DNA of 29,660 nucleotides from a virus (taxonomy: Duplodnaviria > Caudoviricetes). The translations under genes and the position numbers were made by a program. Below, piece after piece: positions 2,464-25,115 of this stretch; position 1 is the stretch's first letter; every line of letters starts with the position of its first letter. The notes beneath the pieces were generated by a model. That model saw only the letters and a program-made list of their open reading frames with translations, had not been told where the DNA came from and searched no databases. The DNA is taken from positions 1 through 29,660 of IMG/VR virus record IMGVR_UViG_3300025296_000087; one strand, 5' to 3'.

Positions 2464-4898
2464 TAACTCACTCGCTTGTATACAGGTCTATATTCAATAG
2501 ACATATCATTTATTTGTATTCCTTCCGACGTACCCGTTGTAGTGGTCGGATTTGTAATTTTAAATCTTATGCTCTGACAAGAAATTGGACTGCTTGAAGT
2601 GGCTCGTAGCTTCTTCCACCCTGTTCCCGTACCACTGAAATTGCCTGTAAGCTGGTCTGAAAAGCTTGTACCGCCATCTGTAGCATAGTATATCGGTTGT
2701 GTCTGGTCATTATCGCTTTTATAAGTTAGTGTAATACCATATACCTTTTTTATTCTGCCGGGGTCACCAAAGTCTATATCTTTCGTAGTCACCTTGAAAT
2801 TCTCAGCGGTAACGTCACGAATATCATCTGACCATTCTTTTACACTGTAATTATCAGCAGTAGAATTCCACAAGTTTCCACCAGTGTAAGAACCCCAGTT
2901 CGCATTGGTATTGGTCCAAGTCAAATCTCCAGTAGTAAGATTCTGATAGGTGGTTGTCATATTACCGTTCCAATCGGAAACTATATTACTTCGGTTTACG
3001 TTCGTATCAAATGCTGCTTGTCCCGACACCCAAGAACCTGTACGAAAGTCGTATACGTATACATCTCCATCTGTGGCAAAAGCACTTTTCAAAATAACGA
3101 GATAATATTTCTTTGGATTATAACCTATTACAGTATTTGCATTTACATAATCTTGCCAAGTAGACTCCTTAATCTTATTTCTCAAAAGGTTTGTAACATT
3201 GTTTCCATCATACACAAAAAGACCAAATTTGTTTATCCAACATATACCAAACTCTGTCTTTACTGATGCGTGGGGATGCTCTATACCAGAAAAGTCTTTT
3301 ATCTCTTCCAAGAACCAGTTGGCTGGAGAAGGAGAAGCTATATTAAGAATATAAAGTTTCCTCGTCTTGAACGCCAATAATCTGTCTGAATATTCCTCAA
3401 GCTTAATAAACTCTTCAGAATCTCCCTTAACAACGTCAATAAAATAACTTCGGGGAAACGTATCAAACTTTCCTACTGGAGTGTACATAATCCTGTCACG
3501 CATTTGAATAGTCTGACCGTCTTCGTTCTCTGTCTTTATATTAGCTACAAAACATCTTCGATTGGCCACTACTGCGGTCTTGTATCCTTCTCCGTTACCT
3601 GATATGGTAATCTTACGTTCAGAAGGAAGAAAACCATTTAATATTTCATATGTTTCCAGACTTGGAGCTAGAGATACAACGCTATTTACATATACTTGGT
3701 CACCGCTATTTTTTACCCACGCTGAATAATCACCACTCAATCCTGCTCTAGCACCACGTGCCATATCAATATCCATAAGCAGTGCCCAAGGGTCATCTGT
3801 ACCATCTACTCTTACATAAACCCTTGCACCAGATATCCTTTCATCAAAGGGTGCGGTTGCATGCAGATTCATTGTCACTTTATAATTGTCCGCACTCGGT
3901 GTAAATGTATTGTTTGCCGTAGGAACATAAAGTAATGATTCCTGATGACCGTCATAAATAAACGAAGTGGCAATCTGATATGCCACAGCATCATAACCAC
4001 CGCCAGATACAGACGCTGCCGTTGTGCTGAATTGAAATCCAGCACCTGCAGATGGATAATTAGATGCGTGAATAACAAGCTCTGTAGGTGCAGCTAATGT
4101 GTTTACATTGGAGAACCAGTTGTCAAAACTTGTAGTAGAAGAAAGACTCAGACTACCAAAGTGCTGTCTCTTAACGTAGCCATACCAGTAAGGCTGAACC
4201 GAAGCACCAAATGTTCCATCAGCAATCCTCAAAGCTTCATCGGAAAAATAGTAAACAGCTTTAATAAGCTTTGTAATGGTGGGAGTGCCAGCTTCATTAG
4301 CTTCTGTATCAAGAATACCGCTATGGTCAAGTGTAATCGTACTTGCAGTCACATTCTTAATCCTAACACCATTAAGATTGTTGTCTGTATCATCAGTACA
4401 TCCCGATATCGCAATAATGTCGCCCTTGCGGAACCCATTGGATATCATTGTACTGTCATCATCTACAATAGTATCATTCGTACCAGAGCCAGAATTATCT
4501 GTAAATGCTAATTTATTTGCGGCAAATGTATCACCTGTAGCCGTACCTAAGTCAACTTGAGAGCTGTTAAATGCATCACCTTTAAGGTCGTATAGGTCTA
4601 TCGTACCCGTAAGACCATCGCACATTGCAAACCAGTTCTCGCCCGTGTCTAATGCGGAAGAACCTTGCTCATGGTCAGACTCGAATACAAATGCACCATA
4701 TCCGGGCGTAATGTGCCCTGCGGTACCGTCTGGTATATCCGTATGTGTTGAGTCTCCGCCTAATGGTTTGATTGACATTCTCTCATCTAAAATGATATTG
4801 TCTGTTTCAGAAAGCTGATTGTCAGCAATATCACGTGGATTGAAAGCGTCGTTAAGACCGCCAGAGAAATCTTTTAGACCATAGAATGCTTTAGGCAT
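2463..4898 (-). CDS. Tail nozzle / stabilization protein (P22 gp10 / T7 tubular B-like)
   Basis: 811 aa, N-terminal FSGGLN motif, beta-rich, C-terminal TKDIDFGDP...K.V motif typical of podovirus nozzle proteins. Confidence 0.7.
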   Translation of the reverse strand: MPKAFYGLKDFSGGLNDAFNPRDIADNQLSETDNIILDERMSIKPLGGDSTHTDIPDGTAGHITPGYGAFVFESDHEQGSSALDTGENWFAMCDGLTGTIDLYDLKGDAFNSSQVDLGTATGDTFAANKLAFTDNSGSGTNDTIVDDDSTMISNGFRKGDIIAISGCTDDTDNNLNGVRIKNVTASTITLDHSGILDTEANEAGTPTITKLIKAVYYFSDEALRIADGTFGASVQPYWYGYVKRQHFGSLSLSSTTSFDNWFSNVNTLAAPTELVIHASNYPSAGAGFQFSTTAASVSGGGYDAVAYQIATSFIYDGHQESLLYVPTANNTFTPSADNYKVTMNLHATAPFDERISGARVYVRVDGTDDPWALLMDIDMARGARAGLSGDYSAWVKNSGDQVYVNSVVSLAPSLETYEILNGFLPSERKITISGNGEGYKTAVVANRRCFVANIKTENEDGQTIQMRDRIMYTPVGKFDTFPRSYFIDVVKGDSEEFIKLEEYSDRLLAFKTRKLYILNIASPSPANWFLEEIKDFSGIEHPHASVKTEFGICWINKFGLFVYDGNNVTNLLRNKIKESTWQDYVNANTVIGYNPKKYYLVILKSAFATDGDVYVYDFRTGSWVSGQAAFDTNVNRSNIVSDWNGNMTTTYQNLTTGDLTWTNTNANWGSYTGGNLWNSTADNYSVKEWSDDIRDVTAENFKVTTKDIDFGDPGRIKKVYGITLTYKSDNDQTQPIYYATDGGTSFSDQLTGNFSGTGTGWKKLRATSSSPISCQSIRFKITNPTTTTGTSEGIQINDMSIEYRPVYKRVS

Positions 4899-5364
4899 GT
4901 AGTGCTCTCCTAACCCATCCGTAATAATACTTTTCTAACTCTGGTCGAGTAAGTGCTAACCTAGCATATTCCATAAGTCTGTAAGCCCTTAATCTCTCAG
5001 GCTCTAATTTTGCAGTCGCTTTAATTGTTTTTGGTCCCACTTTACCATCTACTTGAATTTTAGATTTATTCTTCCCATTACATGCACGTTGCAGTATCTT
5101 GGCGGATTTGGCTATCCCCTGATTAACCACCATATCAAAGTACTGCCCCTGCAACTCGTCAGGCAGTCTTTCTATTTTAGCTGGTAGCCAATAATCATCT
5201 TTATATATCTCCACGGCATCATCCATTGTAAGGTTCTTTATATCAACCTTTGGATATGCTTTTTTAGAAATACCGTACTTAGTTTCTCCGCCGGGGTCAT
5301 CAGGGTCGTTTACATATCCACCTTCACGACCAATTACCTTAGTTATTTCCTGATAAAAAGGCAT
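4891..5364 (-). CDS. Endolysin, glycoside hydrolase family 108 (lysozyme-like)
   Basis: Signature EGGYVNDPDDPGGETKYGI, plus FDMVVNQG and a VDGKVGPKT peptidoglycan-binding-like segment. Start revised to ATG 5364 (TAATG overlap with the upstream small ORF). Confidence 0.9.
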   Translation of the reverse strand: MPFYQEITKVIGREGGYVNDPDDPGGETKYGISKKAYPKVDIKNLTMDDAVEIYKDDYWLPAKIERLPDELQGQYFDMVVNQGIAKSAKILQRACNGKNKSKIQVDGKVGPKTIKATAKLEPERLRAYRLMEYARLALTRPELEKYYYGWVRRALHA

Positions 5365-5516
5365 TATTTTTTCTTCATTACTTTCACGCCCATCAAAACC
5401 TTTTTGGCAGCCGTCCATACGAGGTCATCCATTTTGCTAGGTGACATAGCCACCACCTTGTCTACCACAAGAATACCTATTGTTACGTATTCCCAGTTTT
5501 GCATTATCATGTCCAT
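5364..5516 (-). CDS. Small holin-like membrane protein (50 aa, not in ORF track)
   Basis: MDMIMQNWEYVTIGILVVDKVVAMSPSKMDDLVWTAAKKVLMGVKVMKKK. AGGAG RBS, hydrophobic segment with basic C-terminus, stop overlaps the endolysin start. Confidence 0.6.
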   Translation of the reverse strand: MDMIMQNWEYVTIGILVVDKVVAMSPSKMDDLVWTAAKKVLMGVKVMKKK

Positions 5517-5527
5517 TGTACCATCTC

Positions 5528-5791
5528 CTATTTAAATAATATCCAATCTGACGCGGTGAAATTGACATTTGGGTCATCACCTTCTTCTTTTTCAGGGTTG
5601 ACAATTTTGTCATTTCTATCATATCCTTCCCAACTACATCCCTCATAGAAGAACATCACAAAAGCAAAAACGAAACATATTCCAAGAGTTGTTGCAAAGG
5701 CGTTCCCGAACTTCTGATTCCAATTCTCCATATCCTTAATATCTTTGTTCGTTATGTCTGGCTCTCCCCTCCATGTCTTCACTGTCCTCAT
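5528..5791 (-). CDS. Membrane protein of the lysis cassette
   Basis: One TM segment (AFATTLGICFVFAFVMFF) followed by EGC and an acidic tail. Confidence 0.5.
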   Translation of the reverse strand: MRTVKTWRGEPDITNKDIKDMENWNQKFGNAFATTLGICFVFAFVMFFYEGCSWEGYDRNDKIVNPEKEEGDDPNVNFTASDWILFK

Positions 5792-5794
5792 TTC

Positions 5795-6076
5795 CTATCG
5801 TTTTCTTATTCCAATTTTTTCCAATAAAGATTTATTCTCTTGTATAAGCTCTTCGTTATGATGCTCAATCTCTTCTACATGCTCTTTTTCCATCTGGTCT
5901 AGCCTCATCTGTATCCCTACTATCTCATCGTGTATCTGCGTTATCCTAGTCCCGTGGTCATCAAGTGTGCTACTGACTTTAAAATAAGAAGCTGTAAGCA
6001 AAACAGAGGCTGTGATAATCTGTATGAGCCACTTGATATTGATGTTGATATGAAGGCTATCATTGAGACTAGTCAT
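5795..6076 (-). CDS. TM + coiled-coil membrane protein (lysis accessory / i-spanin-like architecture)
   Basis: N-terminal TM (WLIQIITASVLLTASYF) followed by a heptad-rich helix. Confidence 0.5.
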   Translation of the reverse strand: MTSLNDSLHININIKWLIQIITASVLLTASYFKVSSTLDDHGTRITQIHDEIVGIQMRLDQMEKEHVEEIEHHNEELIQENKSLLEKIGIRKR

Positions 6077-6294
6077 TCCCCAAACACTACACTGCTAACC
6101 AGAGCAAGAATAGACCCAAGAACAACACCAACAAGCGAACCCAGCCCCCTAAGCCACGATACTTGTTTCGTAAGTTCAGATTGTCGCACATCCAATCCTC
6201 TAAGATTGTCCTTAATCCATCTGACATCGGTTTTGACCTCAGCCAAATCAGTTTTTAAGCTCTCTCTCCAATCAGTCAGCTCTTGTCCGTTCAT
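6073..6294 (-). CDS. XhlA/holin-like coiled-coil protein with C-terminal TM
   Basis: DLAEVKTDVRWIK coiled coil, then GLGSLVGVVLGSILALVSSVVF. Confidence 0.55.
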   Translation of the reverse strand: MNGQELTDWRESLKTDLAEVKTDVRWIKDNLRGLDVRQSELTKQVSWLRGLGSLVGVVLGSILALVSSVVFGE

Positions 6295-6469
6295 TCTTCA
6301 TTTCTTCTTTAAATATCCACTTTGTTTTAGGTGGCGTTGACACGTATAAATCAATAGAGTTATGAGCACTCCCCAGAATACGTGTGGTGCTACCTGCCTT
6401 ACCGATACCAGTATCATGGCACTTACAACTGCAATCGCACACGCCATTACTGGGTCTTTCATTCTTCAT
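6272..6469 (-). CDS. Small Cys-rich hypothetical protein
   Basis: 65 aa with CDCSCKCH; overlaps both neighbours and fills the gap in the operon. Confidence 0.4.
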   Translation of the reverse strand: MKNERPSNGVCDCSCKCHDTGIGKAGSTTRILGSAHNSIDLYVSTPPKTKWIFKEEMKNERTRAD

Positions 6470-6947
6470 TTCTTAATCTATCCACTTCTTTCTCAAGAGT
6501 GTCAAGCCTAAATACATTAGCCTGTATATCACCCTGCAGTGCATACCACATACCTAGTAGGGATATAAGACCAGTCACAGCCGCCACCATAGTTTGGATT
6601 GACAACGTGAATTTTTTTTTAAGTATCTCCTCATCAGCCACAGGTACTATAGCGGGTAGTGGTGATACCTTAGATACAACTGGTTTTGGAGCAATCTTCT
6701 TCTGTAAAATTTGTTTCTGTAATAACCTATCTCGTTTTGCCTTCTCTCTCTCAGACTGTGCTTCCTTGGCTTCCTCTAACATAACCCCCGTTAAATCTTC
6801 TACTGTGACATACCCAGCCGCAACTAGAATCTCTCCTAGCTTTCTGTCATCACCATTAGACTGCTTATTAATAGCCTCATTAAGCTGTCGCTTAGTGATA
6901 ATGTCAGCATCCATTAATAGACTGCCGAGCTTAGTCTTATGACCCAT
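6459..6947 (-). CDS. MshEN-motif (c-di-GMP receptor-like) membrane protein
   Basis: From ATG 6947 (GAGG upstream): tandem 24-aa motifs KLGSLLMDADIITKRQLNEAINKQ and KLGEILVAAGYVTVEDLTGVMLEE matching MshEN RLGxxLLxxGLIxxxxLxxxLxxQ, then coiled coil, Pro linker, TM helix and coiled coil. Confidence 0.75.
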   Translation of the reverse strand: MGHKTKLGSLLMDADIITKRQLNEAINKQSNGDDRKLGEILVAAGYVTVEDLTGVMLEEAKEAQSEREKAKRDRLLQKQILQKKIAPKPVVSKVSPLPAIVPVADEEILKKKFTLSIQTMVAAVTGLISLLGMWYALQGDIQANVFRLDTLEKEVDRLRNEE

Positions 6948-7488
6948 CGGTAAACTTGACCTCAAATACATCATGGTCGTCAGTTCCTTTATACTCTATC
7001 TGAGTAATATCTGCTTCGCCACCGAAATGTTGAGCAATACCCTTTAGTGTACCTATAGCCAAAGGAGCTAATCCATCTCTCGGAGACTCATAATGAATTT
7101 CAAAATGATTGTCTCCAAGTTTATTTATTTCAAACGAGGGTGGAGCTAAGTTGGGTAACATCTCTGCAATCCTAACGTGCATCTCATCCAATCCCTCAAC
7201 GAAAGTTTCAAAATCATGACCAAAGGCATTGAAGTATTCTCCATATCCTTTAGGTGCAACATCAGTTGCCCAGTAAACACCAAACATCTCTAGCACATCT
7301 GATGCCGGCACCCCCAATATCTCTGACGTAGCCCCAACAAGTGAATACGTAACAGAATCATCATATCCTTCCATACCATCAAACACATCATCTCCTACTC
7401 CAGAAGATTCAAGTACTTGTTCCCACACCTCTTCACCAGCCTCTCTTGTGACTAAGGTTCGGATAGCTTCGTTAATCATTCCGTACAT
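6937..7488 (-). CDS. H-NOX (HNOB) heme NO-binding sensor protein, 183 aa
   Basis: Starts MYGMIN at ATG 7488 (TAATG overlap). Has YDDSVTY, FGVYW, proximal His in LDEMH (H104), LAPPSF proline and YxSxR (Y133-S135-R137); co-linear with cyanobacterial and sGC-beta H-NOX. Confidence 0.93.
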   Translation of the reverse strand: MYGMINEAIRTLVTREAGEEVWEQVLESSGVGDDVFDGMEGYDDSVTYSLVGATSEILGVPASDVLEMFGVYWATDVAPKGYGEYFNAFGHDFETFVEGLDEMHVRIAEMLPNLAPPSFEINKLGDNHFEIHYESPRDGLAPLAIGTLKGIAQHFGGEADITQIEYKGTDDHDVFEVKFTDGS

Positions 7489-7961
7489 TACTTGTATTCC
7501 AATTCCATTGTGTATGATACTACAACATCTGTGGGCCAATCATCTGTTGCCCATTTCTGTTTAGAGAAAAATTCTCCGTAACCATGACTAAATGGATAAG
7601 CCCAATCTCTTGCATTGTCGGGCCAAGGTACAAAATGTGTTTTATCCATTACGTTACCCAAATTTCTTTCATTGTTCCACTCAATGATGTAACCAGTAAG
7701 AAAAACAGAATCAACAGGAGTTGAATCCAGTTTCGTGACAGCATACCAGTAACCGAGTTCCACACTGTCTACTCCGAATGGATAGAGCTGGGCTTCTGAT
7801 GTAATTCCAAAAGATGCTTCGCTTTCAACATATGAAGTATCATGGACTTGAACATAGAGCGTATCCCTTATCTCATAGATTTCGGGAACATATACTATCT
7901 CTGGGTCTAATTGGCATCCGAGAAGTATGAGTGGAAGAATCCATTTAAGTGCCTTTGCCAA
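7488..7961 (-). CDS. Predicted lipoprotein
   Basis: Basic N-terminus, hydrophobic stretch and lipobox LLGC (Cys16); TTG start. Confidence 0.6.
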   Translation of the reverse strand: MAKALKWILPLILLGCQLDPEIVYVPEIYEIRDTLYVQVHDTSYVESEASFGITSEAQLYPFGVDSVELGYWYAVTKLDSTPVDSVFLTGYIIEWNNERNLGNVMDKTHFVPWPDNARDWAYPFSHGYGEFFSKQKWATDDWPTDVVVSYTMELEYK

Positions 7962-13400: not shown

Positions 13401-13598
13401 TCAAGCCCCCCATCTTCTTTGGTTCATTTCAGAAATATTATCATCTATGGTTTGGCTCCTGAACTCTATATCAGTCCGCTTTCCACGTTCTGTCCTTACA
13501 AATCCATAAGGAGATGAAACCTTTTTTACTTCCTCACATTTGGGACAAGATTCTCCCTTGTAGTACCCGTGGGAAGAACAAATTCCAGATATCTTCAA
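13401..13598 (-). CDS. Small zinc-finger-like protein
   Basis: CxxH...CxxC pattern; TTG start overlapping the upstream stop. Confidence 0.5.
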   Translation of the reverse strand: MKISGICSSHGYYKGESCPKCEEVKKVSSPYGFVRTERGKRTDIEFRSQTIDDNISEMNQRRWGA

Positions 13599-14134
13599 GC
13601 GTATCTTCCTGCGCCCATCATAGGAGGAGCACCCATAGGCATTCTACCTCTAGGTCCCTGTCCCTGCTGCATCATAGCCAATAAAGCCATCATCTGAAGC
13701 TGGTTCGGACCTCCTGCAGCACCTGCACCACCTACTCCTGGCATTCCCATCCCAGCACCCATCATAGGGGGTGGAGCCATAGGCATTCCCATTCCTGCGC
13801 CCATCATAGGAGGCGGAGCCATCGGTGCCCCCGCTGGCATTCTGCCTCTGGGTCGCCCGCGTGCCTGAGCGAGTTTCCCTTTCACTCCTGCGGCATTCGG
13901 ACTTCCCGTTGGTGCCCTTGGGGGAGCCTGTGTGCCCCTACGTGGACCAACCTGTGGCATAAGAGCCGCCATTAAAGAACTTCCACTAGGAAGTCTTTGC
14001 CCAGCACCTGTAATTGGTGCACTCTGTGCTTCCATATATCCTTGCTTGTCTCCAAAAACTTCCAAAATCTGATTCATCTTCATAGACTGAACCATTGGAT
14101 TGTCCTGAACAGGACCTGTACCACCATACGGCAT
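13595..14134 (-). CDS. Pro/Met/Gly-rich low-complexity protein
   Basis: Repeated PMAPPPMMGAGMGM units and GPRGRMP motifs; GAGG RBS. Confidence 0.65.
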   Translation of the reverse strand: MPYGGTGPVQDNPMVQSMKMNQILEVFGDKQGYMEAQSAPITGAGQRLPSGSSLMAALMPQVGPRRGTQAPPRAPTGSPNAAGVKGKLAQARGRPRGRMPAGAPMAPPPMMGAGMGMPMAPPPMMGAGMGMPGVGGAGAAGGPNQLQMMALLAMMQQGQGPRGRMPMGAPPMMGAGRYA

Positions 14135-14797: not shown

Positions 14798-16183
14798 CTA
14801 CAGACTTTCGACGTTGTAAAGAGCATGGGTTTCAGGAAGCGTAACTTCCAGACCCGCTTCGGTCAGAATCATATCTTTCCGAAGGTCTTCGTCGTCGTTC
14901 TGTACGTTAGTAATAACATGAGTATCACGATTGACACCGTTTCCGACAAGCGGACGGTAGGCAACGTTTTTCATATCAGCCATAAGCATGAAGCCGCTAG
15001 CAATACCACGGAAGAGTGGCTCCTTAACCAGATTCATTCGGCCATGGATACTATCAATAACCATGATTGAATGTCCAAAAGTACCCTGTCTTTCTTCGTA
15101 GTTCCAACGAAATGGAGTAACAGCTGTAGTACCAGCCTGTAAAGACTCGTACAAGAAGTTCCCATCTCCTAGTTTATTAAAGAAAGAAACAACGGGCAAT
15201 CCGCAAAGAACCAATCTGTCGCCACTGCCACCGCGAGCGGGGTCAAAAATAACCTCTAAGTCAGAAAGCATTCTGTCATAGGTTAATTCTGCCTGTGCTA
15301 CGCTTCTGTAATATCCAGCACCTGATGTGTGGGATAAATCAGAATCGTCGGTAGTCGGATTCGTGTTTTTTACAATATGACCAACAAGGCCTTCAGTGTA
15401 CTGAACGCCAGTTACACGAGCTTTCTGCCCAAAGAGCAAAGCCCGTTCAATGTCGACCTTATGTTCACGAAGCTTCTCAGCCCAAATACGCTGAAATTCA
15501 TCAGAGTATCCCCTGAACCGAGTAGCTAGTGCAGTTCCTGACAATTCCGCAGCAGTTTTGAAAATCTGAGTATAACCGTAGTTATCCTCGATTTCCGCAG
15601 ACCACACATCAGGTGCGCCGGAACCCTCAGCAAATGAGGTGCCGATAACCTGACATTGGTCGTTATCTGCTAATGTCGCATAGCCAGTTACGTTGGAGTT
15701 TGATACTTCAACACATTTACCTGTGAAGCTTGTATCAGCACCATTGTCTGACGGAGACGACTCAATTCGGAATATTGCCTGTGACCATCCAGCTGTACCA
15801 TCAACCGTATTAACGGAGAAGACCATGCCCTTCACAAGCCAGTCAATACTGCCTGGAGAAGAAGCTGCGTCATCAACCGTAAAAGCATAACTGGTTCCAG
15901 CAGTAACAGCACCCGTTGGGGCACCATCAATATAGAAATTTCTGGAAGTCCAATTAATCTTAGTACGATTTTCTAGATACCTGAAGACTGAATCATCGGT
16001 AGGAACTTTGGCTACTTTGCTCAGGTAGACGAAAAATGGAGACTCTTCTGGAGCTAATTCAGCTACCCTGTCTCCAAAGTTATATAGTCGTCTACGGTCT
16101 GGAGCTTGTCCGACATCGGCACTCGTCGCAGCAACAGTTATGTCACTTGATTTAAGTGTGCCAGTGTTATAAGTAACAGCCAT
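14798..16183 (-). CDS. Major capsid protein (HK97 fold, SU10/DUF5309-like)
   Basis: 461 aa after the scaffold; ESPFF..L, NYGYTQIFKT, EHKVDIERALLFG, ILTEAGLEV motifs; strong AGGAGG RBS. Confidence 0.85.
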   Translation of the reverse strand: MAVTYNTGTLKSSDITVAATSADVGQAPDRRRLYNFGDRVAELAPEESPFFVYLSKVAKVPTDDSVFRYLENRTKINWTSRNFYIDGAPTGAVTAGTSYAFTVDDAASSPGSIDWLVKGMVFSVNTVDGTAGWSQAIFRIESSPSDNGADTSFTGKCVEVSNSNVTGYATLADNDQCQVIGTSFAEGSGAPDVWSAEIEDNYGYTQIFKTAAELSGTALATRFRGYSDEFQRIWAEKLREHKVDIERALLFGQKARVTGVQYTEGLVGHIVKNTNPTTDDSDLSHTSGAGYYRSVAQAELTYDRMLSDLEVIFDPARGGSGDRLVLCGLPVVSFFNKLGDGNFLYESLQAGTTAVTPFRWNYEERQGTFGHSIMVIDSIHGRMNLVKEPLFRGIASGFMLMADMKNVAYRPLVGNGVNRDTHVITNVQNDDEDLRKDMILTEAGLEVTLPETHALYNVESL

Positions 16184-16193
16184 AGTTTACCTC

Positions 16194-16964
16194 CTAAGGT
16201 AATCTACCTGCATTCGAACTCGCCATCACTGCATCCCAGACTTTATCCTCATCGCTCTTTCGAGCGGGGGCTTTGCCTTGCACAGCTCCGGCGGTCCTGG
16301 GAGCTGACTTTCCAGCTCGGACTGCATCCAGTGAAGAAGAAGGCTTCGACCCATCCTTTTTCTTTGTTTTCACGAATACGTCAACAAGTGCGTCAAGTGA
16401 CAATTGCTCCTTCGGTTGCGCGTAAAATTGAAGAAACTCTTGTGTATCTTGTTCACCAAGCTTATAAACATTTTTTAGTTCGCTCACAAGATTGTTTACA
16501 AACACCTGTTCCTGGAGTGCTCCCATGTGTTGTTGTATAGCCTGATTTACCTTCCCATGTTCCTGTTGTTCACGAAACCTGAAAGAAGGGGAATCGGGCT
16601 TGAAATACGCATCCCAAGGATTAAAATCCTCCTCAGAAACAGCATCTTGGCTAGCACTTACTTGTGAATTCAGATTTTCCTGTAATAGTTTTATCAAATC
16701 TGGTCTACTCTCCAAAAGGTCAACTAAGGGCTGATATTGGTTCCAACTAGTCAACTCGGCTTCCGCCTTGTCTTTCATAGATTGGAACTTTTTAGCCTCG
16801 GTTTCCCAGTCAACGCCACTTGCGTCCGAAGTTAGCTCTTCAGCTTCTTCTGCGGGGGATTCGTAGTCCTCGCCCACAGATTCATCGCTGTCCGCAAATA
16901 AATCAACCGTATCCTGTTCCTGTGAATCGATTACCTCATCGATTACGTTTTCTTCTGTTGCCAT
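16194..16964 (-). CDS. Scaffolding protein
   Basis: Acidic N-terminus and helical body, located between portal and MCP; AGGAGG RBS. Confidence 0.75.
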   Translation of the reverse strand: MATEENVIDEVIDSQEQDTVDLFADSDESVGEDYESPAEEAEELTSDASGVDWETEAKKFQSMKDKAEAELTSWNQYQPLVDLLESRPDLIKLLQENLNSQVSASQDAVSEEDFNPWDAYFKPDSPSFRFREQQEHGKVNQAIQQHMGALQEQVFVNNLVSELKNVYKLGEQDTQEFLQFYAQPKEQLSLDALVDVFVKTKKKDGSKPSSSLDAVRAGKSAPRTAGAVQGKAPARKSDEDKVWDAVMASSNAGRLP

Positions 16965-17037
16965 AACCTACCTCCTGATGTCTTCAAACCGTGGACTGGA
17001 CTCCTGTGGAATCTCCCTGTCGAAGCGTCACCATATG

Positions 17038-19074
17038 TTATGTTTCCGATTTAGCTGCCGCTTTTTCCTGCTTTCCAAGCATATCAAGCTCTCTCTGAGA
17101 AAGCTTGACGGCAGCGTCCAATTTCGAAGCACGGACCTTTCGGTCTGCGTTCGCATTAGCCTCAATCTCTGTGAGATGAGACTTAAATTTTGAAAGTTCA
17201 TTGTCTTGTTTGGCATGCATTGTTTCTCTCTGTGCTGTCTGTAAGTCACCACTCAAGTTTTGAATCTGTTCTTCGAGTTGTGCAACATAATCCCTCATTT
17301 GCTGCATTTCATCCATTCTTTCCAAGACACCTTCTTTGTCAAAAATTTCTGGGTTTTTCTTTAATACTTCAATTCTGTCAATAAGCCCGAGCTGAAAAGC
17401 TTCAAGGTATACACCGAATGTCGCCCACTTGCTTTCTGGAAGAGTGCTTCCTGAAACAATTCTCACATCGTGCTGTCCCACGTTCAGCCTGTCTTTTTGT
17501 ATATCATTTACAGCTTGAGAGGAATCGTCATACATATTAACCGTTATCTCGGTCATATTGTTATCAGCCTGTACTAGTGTGAACATTTTTGGAAATGTGT
17601 AATGTCCCTTTGATATACCATACAATACTTTTCCCAATCGATTAATACTAAATTCTATATCACGTAACTTGGACTTCGGTCTATCGCTTCCAAGTGCTAC
17701 CATACGTTCCGTTCCACGCACTGTATCAGGGGCCTTCTCTGGAAACCCGTGAGTCATCTCTGGAAGACCGAAGATAAAATCTATGTAGAACTCTGCCTGT
17801 TGAATCAGCCGATAGAACTCAGAGGCTAATGGCTGTGGTGCAGGATAATGTGGCTCACCCTGTGTTGTATCAACTTCGATAACCGCATTTGGATTTGCCC
17901 ACTCACGCTCTAGGTCATCAAGATTATCAACAGACCCAATCGGTACAATAAGCTTAAGACCTGCAGATGCCTGTGCATGAGAAAGAGCCAAAGACCATAA
18001 ACGGTTTAAAAGCTTCTGCATAGGACGTGCACGAGATACATCCGATTTCGGATATGGTGTTCCTGTCCAAATATTTGGAAGTGGTACAATTGGATACATA
18101 TCAGTATTCAATACAGATTCGTATAGCAGAACCTCTCCAATTGTTGCCGTTACTGCAATTCTTGGCTGTAAAACCTCTTCAAACTGCAAAAACCCCCTTT
18201 CAACCATTCCAGGGTTTTCCTGAAGCATAGTCTGAAAAGCCTGCTCGTCAAGAACGCTTTCCTCTCCAGAGCGTGCGTCAATAACCCGATAATAAGGAAC
18301 CTTTACAGGATAAAACCTTTCGAGTATCTGGTATTTATCAGAAGTAAATGTATTAGAATAGCTCTTATCCTTTGTCTCAGCCGGCGTAAACACTTTCATT
18401 GAGTTTACATTCTGAGCGTCTGGATAATCTTCCTCGTTATACGTCGATAGCTCATGTATCACCCCAGGATAGACTTCCTGAGTTTCTGAATCTATCTGGT
18501 CACCTAATTGTGGGTAGAGGTTGACGACCTGTTCGCCTGTCAGTATAGTAGAAAGAATGATGCCCTCGGCATCAGCAAACCACCTGTCCCTGCAGTCAGG
18601 TGGGACATAAACACGGAAGGGATTAACATAGGTAAACTTGACATCACCTCTACCGAAATCTGATTCTGCATCAACATATGCATACATATATCCTAGACCC
18701 GTAACAGCATAATCCGTGATAGCCTGCTTTATCTGATTATCACCGTCTGAAATGTCCCAGACATATCCTAGTATAGAGCGAAACACGGAAGCTACCTGTG
18801 CATCCGAGTCCTCTCTGGGAACCACTGTGAACACGGGGGGTCTTGCAGTAAGAACACTCTTTAGCTTATCAATTGCAGGAGATATCCTATCCATAGGAAC
18901 ATCTGCTTGATTTCTAGATGCAAGCTCATCTGACTCTTCTGAAGTAAAATGATTGCCAAGAAAAAAATCTAAGTCAGTTCTTGCTTCTGTATCCCAGTCT
19001 GTACGTGCATCACGCCAGTTACGATAAAGTTCCTGGTTCTGTTCTGCTTCTGGTGCCTTCTCTATTTTAGCCAT
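17038..19074 (-). CDS. Portal protein (P22-like)
   Basis: 678 aa; DFFLGNHF, TGLGY, VNPFRVY, YPIVP, WANPNAVIE motifs and a C-terminal coiled-coil barrel. Confidence 0.85.
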   Translation of the reverse strand: MAKIEKAPEAEQNQELYRNWRDARTDWDTEARTDLDFFLGNHFTSEESDELASRNQADVPMDRISPAIDKLKSVLTARPPVFTVVPREDSDAQVASVFRSILGYVWDISDGDNQIKQAITDYAVTGLGYMYAYVDAESDFGRGDVKFTYVNPFRVYVPPDCRDRWFADAEGIILSTILTGEQVVNLYPQLGDQIDSETQEVYPGVIHELSTYNEEDYPDAQNVNSMKVFTPAETKDKSYSNTFTSDKYQILERFYPVKVPYYRVIDARSGEESVLDEQAFQTMLQENPGMVERGFLQFEEVLQPRIAVTATIGEVLLYESVLNTDMYPIVPLPNIWTGTPYPKSDVSRARPMQKLLNRLWSLALSHAQASAGLKLIVPIGSVDNLDDLEREWANPNAVIEVDTTQGEPHYPAPQPLASEFYRLIQQAEFYIDFIFGLPEMTHGFPEKAPDTVRGTERMVALGSDRPKSKLRDIEFSINRLGKVLYGISKGHYTFPKMFTLVQADNNMTEITVNMYDDSSQAVNDIQKDRLNVGQHDVRIVSGSTLPESKWATFGVYLEAFQLGLIDRIEVLKKNPEIFDKEGVLERMDEMQQMRDYVAQLEEQIQNLSGDLQTAQRETMHAKQDNELSKFKSHLTEIEANANADRKVRASKLDAAVKLSQRELDMLGKQEKAAAKSET

Positions 19075-19252
19075 CTATATAATTCTTTACGCTTGCTGTT
19101 TCCTCTATTTTCTGCAATCTGGCTTCTATACCCTCAACAAGCCCTGCAAGCTCGTTGTAGTCTTTAGAAAAGTCATAAGGCTCGTGAGCGTTTTTTTCTA
19201 GCTCCTCAATTCGAGCCTGCAAGTCGGGTTTTTCTTCTTTTTTTGCTGCCAA
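19067..19252 (-). CDS. Small coiled-coil hypothetical protein
   Basis: 61 aa, TTG start, first gene after the promoter at 19279-19307. Confidence 0.5.
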   Translation of the reverse strand: MAAKKEEKPDLQARIEELEKNAHEPYDFSKDYNELAGLVEGIEARLQKIEETASVKNYIDG

Positions 19253-19278
19253 GGTATAATAGTAAATCTCTCTAAGAT

Positions 19279-19307
19279 AATATAAGGAAAAAAATGCCGT
19301 TTGTCAA
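19279..19307 (-). promoter_or_regulatory. Sigma70-type promoter for the portal/capsid operon
   Basis: TTGACA-N17-TATATT on the minus strand, preceded by an A-tract. Confidence 0.7.
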
Positions 19308-19326
19308 GAGTTTTTTTGCAGGAAAC

Positions 19327-20961
19327 CTATGTTCTTGCACCTGTAAGCCAGTTATACTTAAGATATTTTGCAGTTTTTCTACTTCCTTCATTAGCTGGAG
19401 AGTTAAAATCGTCTATATCCATAACTTTACTAGAAGGTGGTTTCTGCCACGCAAAGTAGTTTGCATAGTACAGTGCATCAAGAATATCATCATTCCTTGC
19501 CTTCGGGTGTTCAAATAATTCATCTGTCAATTCCGTCATAGTTCTCTTTATGTATAGCTTCTTTCCGTTTACTATGGGTCCCAATGCTGTTTCTAGCCTA
19601 TCAGCCTTTTTTATTCCTTTCGGTGGTTTAGCACCCTTAAATATTCCTGGAGCCAAACGCCTGTCTGCAAGAGATAACCTATCTGCCATATCTCTTACCA
19701 TTTCCTGTGCAGCAACAGTTTCAATAGTAACTCGCCTTACAGGTCCATAATCTTTTGCAAGTTGTATAATCTTCTTTGGAACGTCGAAAGTTGGAATCCT
19801 TTCTCGAAAATACTCTAGCACATAACGATTTTTATCAGAATCCATTCCCATAACAAGGATTACTTGATAGTCTGACGAAGAAGATGCTGTGTGTGCAACA
19901 TCAACTCCGAGATACACATAAATTGGAATAGCCTTATCATTCGTTATGAGATATGAGAAGTTGTTCTTAGCTTTGTGATGTCCGGCATAATACTGGACTC
20001 TGTCAATTTTGAACGCTGCATTTGATATGTCACGTGCATCATTCATATATTCCTGTGCAAACTTGTTTACAAGCCCAGCCTCTATAAATTCTTTTTTCTT
20101 TTTCTTGAGCTTGTTATTTGAGAATTGTTCTAACCATATAGACTTCCCACCCTCTATAGCCTGATGAAACATTACATCCCACGGATATGAGCGATTCTCC
20201 TTCTTGGCTTCGGTATATGAGTCATATGTCATTTGAAGAAATGAGTCATAATGTACAATAGTACCAAGAAGCCAAATCCATCCTTCGTGACCAGGTGTCT
20301 CTTCAAGCGAGGGGTATACCGTGGAAACAATCCATCTTTTAATTTCGGCACGCCTTTCTGGTGTTTTGGTGTTTAACTCGGATTCAAAGTCATCCAATAC
20401 AATGCCAGTGTACCGCCTGTCAATCTCAGCACGACCACGCAGACGCTGAGTTGTGCCCTTTGCTATTATCCTATCCCCTTTGGATGTGATAATATCCTTC
20501 TCAGTCCATCGATTGCCCACCAAGTCTCCGGCAAGGTCCCCAAAATAGTATCTAATGTATTTATTGTTTTCTATGTGTGACTTAATATATTTTAAATGGT
20601 CAATGGCCTGTCCCTGCTCTTCAGCCACCCAAGCAATAAAATGTGGGTCATCCTTTTGTCCGAAGCATATTTTGTGTAAAATGGCAGCTTTGGCAAGAAC
20701 TGACTTCCCAAAGCCCCTAGGGACAATATTGCAAATTCTCTCTCCAGGTTGAGTAGATATAAGCTTTTGACCTATTTCATAGTGAAATGGCGGAGATTTG
20801 CTCTTTTTAAGGAAATCCTTAGGTAAAAAGGCTCTTCCAAAGAATATGAGGTCTTCATAGGCCTGCTTTAAAAGCTGGTCTTTTGCATTAAGACTTATCT
20901 CTTCTGGTCTTCTTAACGCCGCTTCTTCTTGTGTCTGTCTTGTTTTTGCTTTTTCTTCCAC
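19327..20961 (-). CDS. terL: Terminase large subunit
   Basis: Walker A PRGFGKS, Walker B IVLDDFE, coupling motif GTIVH, nuclease GVD and NDDILDA. Exact start uncertain. Confidence 0.92.
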   Translation of the reverse strand: MEEKAKTRQTQEEAALRRPEEISLNAKDQLLKQAYEDLIFFGRAFLPKDFLKKSKSPPFHYEIGQKLISTQPGERICNIVPRGFGKSVLAKAAILHKICFGQKDDPHFIAWVAEEQGQAIDHLKYIKSHIENNKYIRYYFGDLAGDLVGNRWTEKDIITSKGDRIIAKGTTQRLRGRAEIDRRYTGIVLDDFESELNTKTPERRAEIKRWIVSTVYPSLEETPGHEGWIWLLGTIVHYDSFLQMTYDSYTEAKKENRSYPWDVMFHQAIEGGKSIWLEQFSNNKLKKKKKEFIEAGLVNKFAQEYMNDARDISNAAFKIDRVQYYAGHHKAKNNFSYLITNDKAIPIYVYLGVDVAHTASSSSDYQVILVMGMDSDKNRYVLEYFRERIPTFDVPKKIIQLAKDYGPVRRVTIETVAAQEMVRDMADRLSLADRRLAPGIFKGAKPPKGIKKADRLETALGPIVNGKKLYIKRTMTELTDELFEHPKARNDDILDALYYANYFAWQKPPSSKVMDIDDFNSPANEGSRKTAKYLKYNWLTGART

Positions 20962-24144: not shown

Positions 24145-24337
24145 CTAATACTAATATATCCATCAATACCGTATACGTATAATTCGTATACACGTATTGG
24201 GGAAAGTTGAATTTGCAAAAAATAGGGTTACAATGTGTGTCTCCCTTTGATGGCCCAGGGGCACGGGGTCGGGTTATACGCTTTCTGTTCGCTTTCGTTG
24301 ACAACCATTAAGCCCAAAAAGAAAGTGAAAAAAAAGC

Positions 24338-24366
24338 TTGCATGTTATGGGAGGACGTTGTAAATT
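24338..24366 (+). promoter_or_regulatory. Rightward sigma70-type promoter
   Basis: A-tract, then TTGCAT-N17-TAAATT. Confidence 0.5.
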
Positions 24367-24413
24367 ATAGGATTTGCAATTTTCGGTTTTCGTTCCAGTT
24401 TAATAAATCTTTC

Positions 24414-24443
24414 AATTTACGAATGTTTTTTTATACAAGTCAA
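24414..24443 (-). promoter_or_regulatory. Second leftward promoter
   Basis: TTGACT-N18-TAAATT. Confidence 0.45.
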
Positions 24444-24471
24444 GTCCTTTATTTATTGGTAAAAAAACCGC

Positions 24472-24501
24472 TTGCACTATATGTTCTTTTATCCTTACCT
24501 T
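24472..24501 (+). promoter_or_regulatory. Possible second rightward promoter
   Basis: A-tract, then TTGCAC-N18-TACCTT. Confidence 0.35.
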
Positions 24502-24617
24502 TGGGCAATGAATCGTTTATCCTGTCAATTTTGTTCCTGCAGAAAAAATTCCTGTAAAAAGGAATTGCAGAAAGATGTTCTTTCTGTAACATTCAAAACA
24601 AAAAGGATAAATACAAA

Positions 24618-25115
24618 ATGAATGCAGTAACAAACAACGCAACCGATAAGATGACAACTCTAGAATTCGTCAATACTGAAAAGGATAAAGGTGATGCTTC
24701 ACTGTTTGCCTTTACTTTACAGGAAAACGAAACTAGTAAAGATAGAAAGATAATAGAACCAGAGCAAATGTCTGAATCTATTGATTTACTAGTGTCTGAT
24801 GGATTACCCCTAGAAAAGGCTACAGAAAGCGTTCTCAGACATACTAGAGTTAGAACAACATCCGAAAAGTACACTTTGACCACTAGTGTGAAAGGTGCTA
24901 TGAAAGAGATTGAAAACCTAGTTTTCGATGCTATTACTAAGGATGCCAAAACAGAAGCATCTATAGACGAAAACAGCGTCAAACGAGGTAATGACAACAC
25001 TAGAACACTAGTGAAGTTCAATCAAATGATGGATGTTGACGGAAAGAACAAACCTGTACAAGTTGACCTTTCTCTAAACGTCAAAGTATGGAAGAAAAGG
25101 AACGCATCCGTATAA
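24618..25115 (+). CDS. Early hypothetical protein
   Basis: 165 aa, AAGGA RBS. Confidence 0.7.
   Translation: MNAVTNNATDKMTTLEFVNTEKDKGDASLFAFTLQENETSKDRKIIEPEQMSESIDLLVSDGLPLEKATESVLRHTRVRTTSEKYTLTTSVKGAMKEIENLVFDAITKDAKTEASIDENSVKRGNDNTRTLVKFNQMMDVDGKNKPVQVDLSLNVKVWKKRNASV

Follow-up and report, generated by a model that had tools for sequence, protein, structure and literature searches.

The window, that is, the whole 29,660-nt stretch of viral DNA analysed here (CheckV rates the record as about 67% complete), carries on its minus strand a pair of overlapping genes that lies between tail-type genes and a group of five small genes with an endolysin, the latter 1.1 kb downstream of the pair. 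The first gene of the pair encodes an H-NOX haem sensor and the second a small protein with a predicted membrane helix, which we call the partner. The features are as follows.

14798..20961, minus strand (the strand of the module): SU10-type major capsid, scaffold, P22-like portal and large terminase
7488..7961, minus strand: upstream gene for a predicted lipoprotein, with a hydrophobic N-terminus ending LLGC and a TAATG junction
6937..7488, minus strand (7488→6937): H-NOX (HNOB) haem sensor gene, 183 aa
6459..6947, minus strand: partner gene, 162 aa from the ATG at 6947, laid out as MshEN domain, basic helix, linker, predicted transmembrane helix and short predicted coiled coil
6771..6932, minus strand: MshEN c-di-GMP-binding-type tandem motif, partner residues 6-59 (K6-L7-G8...L22, I26, Q29; K36-L37-G38...L52, M56, E59)
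6696..6758, minus strand: basic 'KRD' segment, a predicted helix, partner residues about 64-84
6543..6611, minus strand: predicted single transmembrane helix of the partner, about residues 113-135
5364..6462, minus strand: five small genes with hydrophobic segments, candidate holin/spanin-type (6298-6462, 6073-6294, 5795-6076, 5528-5791 and 5364-5516)
4891..5364, minus strand: endolysin, GH108 + PG_binding_3

The plus strand of 6937-7488 is riddled with stops, and the 183-codon reading frame is on the minus strand. Its product matches PF07700 (HNOB) with 157.4 bits against a cut-off of 25.5 (E=3.8e-46; profile positions 1-162 of 163) and, over residues 1-182, the sequence of a solved H-NOX, Nostoc Alr2278 (E=2e-49). 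The hallmark residues listed in a preliminary description of this DNA are all in place, namely the MYG start, H104, LAPPSF at 114-119, Y133/S135/R137 and L143. H104, P117 (the family-invariant proline) and Y133/S135/R137 align with the Nostoc protein, H104 falling on the proximal His. The protein further has the distal residues I9/W73/L143, no Cys and a net charge of -27. The same description correctly recorded the TAATG that joins the gene to the one upstream; the latter, whose product matches no Pfam or PHROG family, occurs only in the window's own lineage (its cluster lies upstream at 14 of 84 loci) and is no fixed part of the module. The assignment to a phage late region also holds, given the terminase, P22-like portal, SU10-type capsid and GH108 endolysin, as does the statement that no kinase, MCP or cyclase is adjacent: none was found among the 35 of 128 listed window ORFs that were scanned for families (Pfam, PHROGs), and the record contains no GGDEF.

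The O2-binding triad of the Cs and Tt H-NOX proteins consists of W9, N74 and Y140 (PMC7356049; 10.1101/2025.05.27.656425). In all 63 unique viral proteins these positions are I9, W73 and L143, and the O2-type triad is absent. L143 aligns with a Nostoc Met six residues past the motif Arg, and we take it to be the position of sGC I145 and Tt Y140; Thr147 is presumably the position of sGC I149. Because I9, W73 and L143 replace the triad, the pocket is predicted to be of the NO type and to exclude O2, as had been proposed from Leu143. The proposal needs a qualification, however: at position 147, 40 of the 63 viral proteins have Thr and the other 23 have Met, whereas 40 of 40 other aligned H-NOX have Leu, Val or Ile, and the polar Thr147 is a caveat for strict O2 exclusion. 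Redox sensing through Cys and zinc is described for H-NOX of the Vibrio cholerae type (PMC7108781); a Cys-based mode is unlikely for the viral proteins, since 62 of 63 contain no Cys, and the Cys residues of the zinc site are absent.

A protein search at the level of 90% clusters returned 91 proteins, the near-full-length ones at 70-93% identity, after which identity drops to ≤46%; an exhaustive search of 50% representatives gave one cluster at 78%, with the next full-length match at ≤45%. Related loci were found in viral contigs (14 loci, 73-100% identity), in metagenomes (the best 80 of 170 stretches) and among 185,579 species genomes (four loci), by scans with short query-derived patterns that distant viral H-NOX could escape. 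Two of the four genomic loci are ordinary bacterial H-NOX genes (43% and 36% identity) located before sensor genes; the other two (L015 and L018) come from a single phage that had been placed in two MAGs with no relation to each other, and capsid, portal, terminase, polymerase and tape measure are all present on the contig of L015. The H-NOX has no match in PHROGs, and the ESM Atlas yielded nothing but viral clusters, which share no Pfam family. The preliminary description had suggested a phylogeny against bacterial H-NOX and an estimate of dN/dS across viral homologues, and we carried out both. The quick tree places 35 viral rows on one side of a branch and 40 others on the opposite side (SH-aLRT 100, stem 0.55), and no donor can be named from it. 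The alignment comprises 97 H-NOX rows including the window, six of which are identical copies of the window's protein and eight of which are cut by contig ends; none of the 97 contains an internal stop. Among the 63 unique full-length viral proteins, 87 of 183 columns are invariant, all haem-contact residues included, and H104, P117, Y133, S135, R137, W73 and L143 are the same in every one. The 1511 of 1953 pairs with dS 0.05-2 give a median dN/dS of 0.104, and for the window's gene against the others dN/dS is 0.04-0.12 where dS is computable.

The codon composition of the gene follows the phage that carries it: GC3 of H-NOX is 0.32 against 0.34 for the flanks in the window, and 0.19 against 0.14-0.15 in low-GC phages. 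One viral clade, dN/dS of about 0.1 and GC3 matched to each phage together bear out the earlier suggestion of a resident phage gene. The opposite possibility, a recent non-functional capture with homologues that are always degraded or only bacterial, was looked for as well; because internal stops are lacking, dN/dS is purifying and GC3 matches the flanks, what we found are intact, selected viral homologues. As judged from these comparisons, the viral H-NOX proteins are under purifying selection and constitute a single clade carried by phages, with 73–100% identity inside it and ≤46% to the nearest other H-NOX, and 6937..7488 is a real, intact and selected phage-borne H-NOX gene of the predicted NO type.

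Residency had also been argued from the lack of GATC. The absence is real across the window (0 sites against about 203 expected on both strands), but as evidence of residency it is weak and we rejected it in favour of GC3 tracking: at a density of 3.1-3.4 sites per kb, a stretch of 552 nt would lack GATC with a probability of 0.15-0.18, and the H-NOX genes of the GATC-rich relatives L002, L006 and L010 also lack the site (the close relative L002 has 64 in 20.5 kb). In the window, GCGC, CCGG, CGCG, GGCC and CATG occur at 0.28-0.41 of expectation. This depletion, together with the absence of GATC, suggests restriction avoidance.

The term orphan, which had been applied to this H-NOX, does not fit. 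A gene for an MshEN-motif membrane protein comes next in 89 of 89 readable loci, corresponding to 75 distinct protein pairs, with gaps of -11, -8, -1, +2, +3 or +5 nt. In the window, the partner begins before H-NOX ends, with an overlap of 11 nt, and a GAGG lies 11-14 nt upstream of the partner ATG. The upstream neighbours of H-NOX vary (23 clusters among 84 loci) and so do the settings of the pair, which is found with a P22-like portal (the window), tape measures (L015, L006) or a tail sheath (the low-GC large phage L010), such that podo-, sipho- and myovirus-like phages all carry it. The membrane helix predicted for the partner (Kyte-Doolittle maximum of 1.75 over 19 residues, at 113-131) is kept across the partner family, and H-NOX is the more conserved of the two proteins. 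We regard it as probable that H-NOX and the partner constitute a coupled sensor-partner module. In one 61-kb contig the module appears twice, about 30 kb apart (L088 and L089), probably an assembly duplication.

The partner also works without H-NOX in many phages. An alignment search located the partner family at 51 viral loci, at 38 of which (32 unique proteins) there is no H-NOX in the flanking DNA covered, and no H-NOX was found elsewhere in the genomes of unlinked partners in 10 records that are 2-72% complete. A large phage family of MshEN-membrane proteins without H-NOX (L031-L068, e.g. L035:3983-4558) has no Pfam family; its neighbours include a ~430-aa exported protein, a lipoprotein and a thioredoxin-like protein, and the 5284 profile hits for this family include other MshEN proteins.

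The first 60 residues of the window's partner score 47.8 bits against NCBIfam NF053729 (cut-off 38), which eight of nine partners scanned exceed, L015 scoring 37, and this head matches PilB, PilF and MshE (5HTL) in the PDB. The residues that PMC5013675 gives for MshE, Leu10/Gly11/Leu25/Leu29 and Leu39/Gly40/Leu54/Leu58, correspond to L7, G8, L22, I26, L37, G38, L52 and M56 here. In the same paper, the hydrophobic cluster and Gly11 matter most for MshE, and changes of Arg9 and Gln32 cost less than fivefold. For PilF, a Lys at motif position 1 is associated with tighter binding (PMC11731258); the window's partner has Lys at both first motif positions, which is compatible with tight binding. The partner keeps G45 and Q29 but departs from the consensus in D15 for Gly18, a spacer of 6 residues rather than 5, and E59 for Gln61. 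The residue equivalent to Gln61 is Gln in 42 of 63 linked partners, and position 1 of motif 2 is Glu in 10 of the 63. Overall, the head is likely to bind c-di-GMP.

Adjacent to this head is the KRD segment, with invariant K71, R72, D73, L76, I80 and K84. It is present in 63 of 63 H-NOX-linked partners and in 0 of 32 unlinked ones, and the charge of the partner linker differs likewise, from +2 to +7 in linked and from -12 to 0 in unlinked proteins. The viral H-NOX, for its part, has a charge of -17 to -28, while 100 other H-NOX have a median charge of -10. Because the H-NOX domain of sGC lies along a coiled coil (10.1101/2020.08.21.262071), the KRD segment is a plausible docking site; its association with H-NOX linkage and the unusual acidity of the viral H-NOX suggest direct docking of the acidic H-NOX on the basic helix. 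Common descent could also give this pattern: since a single clade of linked MshEN domains stays acceptable (AU test p=0.40), common descent with tight linkage could account for the joint presence of helix and H-NOX. By the same test, recurrent loss of H-NOX together with the KRD segment is not established, although the MshEN tree shows three changes between linked and unlinked forms, with L037 and L043/L047 nested among linked rows. In a quick C-terminal tree linked and unlinked partners interleave, with 10 changes, a pattern that suggests recombination within the partner gene.

The position of the pair next to the lysis-type genes of the window is shared by only some relatives. The partner and the five small window genes match no holin/antiholin or lysis family. 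In 33 relatives, read up to 3 kb downstream and less at contig ends, endolysin and holin-like genes were found within 3 kb in L005, L080, L083, L086 and L101, and a 3TM-holin-like gene lies downstream in L007 and L013. A thioredoxin-like gene is downstream in 21 of the 33 loci, with a recognisable holin in only two of these. In L015 the pair lies between the tape measure and two DUF2589 genes (L015:7033-8110, straight after the module and within the tail gene block), about 8.6 kb from the endolysin. Linkage to lysis genes is not general, many relatives having no recognisable lysis gene nearby. Other neighbours include, downstream of the module in L138 (3760-4224) and L108, five pilin-like ORFs that carry an N-methylation motif, and small proteins with PF00924, the mechanosensitive-channel beta-domain, near the module at four loci (among them L010:1943-2365 and L118:2111-2461). 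Elsewhere in the window, 13595-14134 (minus strand), between the capsid and adaptor genes, is a 179-aa Met/Gly/Pro-rich low-complexity ORF with no family match. At 24300-25000 there is a strand switch, with late genes on the minus strand and small early-type genes (Pfam GP88, DUF4241) on the plus strand, where GC falls to 0.32-0.34 and the skew reverses. Neither an Rfam family nor a tRNA was recognised in the window, and promoter-like or terminator-like sites are not in excess.

All 14 runs that contain half or more of the window's words are labelled marine metagenome. No cultured relative of H-NOX or the partner is present in INPHARED, and the best-covered terminase matches are about 25% identical. 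Marinimicrobia came up as a candidate host, L018 and L155 being in a Marinimicrobia bin, but was not adopted: the same phage is in a Methanosarcinales bin (L015), the contig is phage throughout, and the window's capsid matched only 1 of 401 Marinimicrobia genomes, weakly. Contigs of relatives cover the H-NOX/partner region in four of four RNA-type runs (deepest X15), although such contigs can be DNA.

Taken together, these results are best accommodated, tentatively, by a model under which H-NOX is the sensor half of a two-gene module, an NO and c-di-GMP membrane switch that would tune a late envelope step, most likely the timing of lysis. The model starts from an intact gene, the fixed pairing, the overlapping or near-abutting stop and start, and purifying selection. 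As is known for the family, the H-NOX would take up host haem via H104 and YxSxR, and NO would move its N-terminal subdomain. The acidic H-NOX may then bind the basic KRD helix in the manner of the sGC H-NOX, which lies along a coiled coil, so that the NO state and the c-di-GMP level could jointly set the conformation of the single-pass partner. In the last and weakest step, the membrane helix or outer coiled coil of the partner might act on the holin-type neighbours as an antiholin-like brake or a trigger. Lysis control is the best single guess as to the output, because the pair is near the endolysin here and near lysis genes in some relatives, but we hold it to be possible rather than probable. 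Sequestration of c-di-GMP or envelope remodelling comes close behind, and the pilin-like genes near two loci fit these outputs.

Such an output is the basis of a rival explanation, in which the same coupled module would be an NO-gated membrane sink or decoy for c-di-GMP that does not act on the lysis genes but lowers or redirects the c-di-GMP signalling of the host, with effects on pili, surface glycans, superinfection exclusion or c-di-GMP-using immunity. The low-GC large phages, in which the partner resides among envelope-type genes (the ~430-aa exported protein, lipoproteins and the thioredoxin-like protein), the pilin-like genes of L108 and L138, the large size of the partner family without H-NOX, and the role of MshEN as the c-di-GMP receptor of pilus ATPases (PMC5013675) are all consistent with this explanation. 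We nevertheless consider it less likely than action on lysis, given that a pure sponge needs neither a membrane anchor nor a conserved outer domain and that small phages repeatedly place the pair between tail and lysis genes.

More improbable is an H-NOX that works by itself, either by addressing a histidine kinase or diguanylate cyclase of the host or by buffering NO or haem, next to a neighbour that is merely co-expressed; the preliminary description had raised a host HnoK/DGC target or NO buffering as possibilities. Stand-alone bacterial H-NOX do regulate kinases or cyclase/phosphodiesterases (10.1101/2020.08.21.262071), and GGDEF proteins are encoded in 81 of 101 genomes of the candidate host phylum, although the host link is unreliable. 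However, H-NOX is present in only 2 of 301 genomes of that phylum, both distant (L153, L154), the pairing is 89 of 89 across unrelated phage types, and the helix and charge switch of the partner track the presence of H-NOX. It is this dedicated, phage-encoded MshEN-motif neighbour with an H-NOX-linked helix that makes host-directed action or buffering the less likely alternative. The least probable of the explanations is that H-NOX is a passenger of a useful membrane-protein gene, or a structural cap that senses no gas. Overlapping genes are inherited together, and a single origin of the linked form is acceptable by the AU test, but a passenger is hard to reconcile with dN/dS of about 0.1 (dS being near or past saturation), the intact frames in all 97 rows, the invariant haem-contact residues and the conservation of H-NOX above that of the partner.

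Returning to the membrane-switch model, a possible, if still speculative, generalization is that three virion types of marine phage have in common a dedicated two-protein receptor, in which a haem NO sensor, docked on a membrane protein that binds c-di-GMP, would integrate a gas with a second messenger of the host to decide when the cell bursts. Late in infection, viruses with the module would probably sense chemical signals of the host and may use them to time lysis, and a phage clade under strong selection that moved with its partner between unrelated marine phages would be a case of a virus sensing a gas. If the model is correct, H-NOX gains a new kind of output, MshEN without an enzyme, that is not described in the literature searched, and marine NO chemistry and the c-di-GMP state become tied to viral lysis. 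Both proteins are small and expressible without the host, so that binding of haem, NO, c-di-GMP and the partner is directly testable. In the literature searched, judged by titles and the opening lines of abstracts, neither the pairing of a phage-borne NO-type H-NOX with a dedicated MshEN-motif membrane partner nor an H-NOX or MshEN encoded by a phage is described; the search did not extend to subscription journals or to supplementary tables of auxiliary genes, which may list PF07700. A term search of one review (PMC8738867) did not return 'phage', and the papers on phage N4 concern an MshEN enzyme of the host.

The closest known relatives of the sensor are the stand-alone, sGC-like bacterial H-NOX, such as Nostoc Alr2278 (PDB 2O09/4IAE), that of Shewanella woodyi with its cyclase/phosphodiesterase, and the H-NOX/HnoK systems. 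The known H-NOX proteins, of bacterial and animal origin, act by controlling kinases, cyclases or chemoreceptors. The viral and the stand-alone bacterial forms share the full HNOB domain with proximal His, Pro, YxSxR and a non-polar distal position, as well as a separate gene coupled to the next one. Unlike the bacterial proteins, however, the viral form is phage-borne, belongs to one clade with ≤46% identity to others and is far more acidic; Leu143 and Thr/Met147 are specific to this clade, and the next gene encodes a small MshEN-motif membrane protein without an enzyme domain rather than a kinase, cyclase or MCP. The partner resembles the MshEN receptors (V. cholerae MshE 5HTL, GSPII of PilB/PilF, NfrB; NF053729) in the tandem (R/K)LG, the hydrophobic cluster and the first Gln, but differs from them in that it has the four-helix N-subdomain only, on a membrane anchor and not on an ATPase or glycosyltransferase, with Asp for Gly18, a 6-residue spacer and, in the window, Glu for the second Gln. 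T4-type lysis inhibition operates through antiholins and superinfection signals and, if the proposed output holds, would be similar in that a phage reads a signal to steer lysis. In the same conditional sense, a signal steers lysis in the phage LuxR-type receptors and the quorum-sensing lysis control of VP882 as well; those systems employ autoinducer-binding transcription factors, whereas here a haem gas sensor and c-di-GMP would act at the membrane, late and with no transcription factor.
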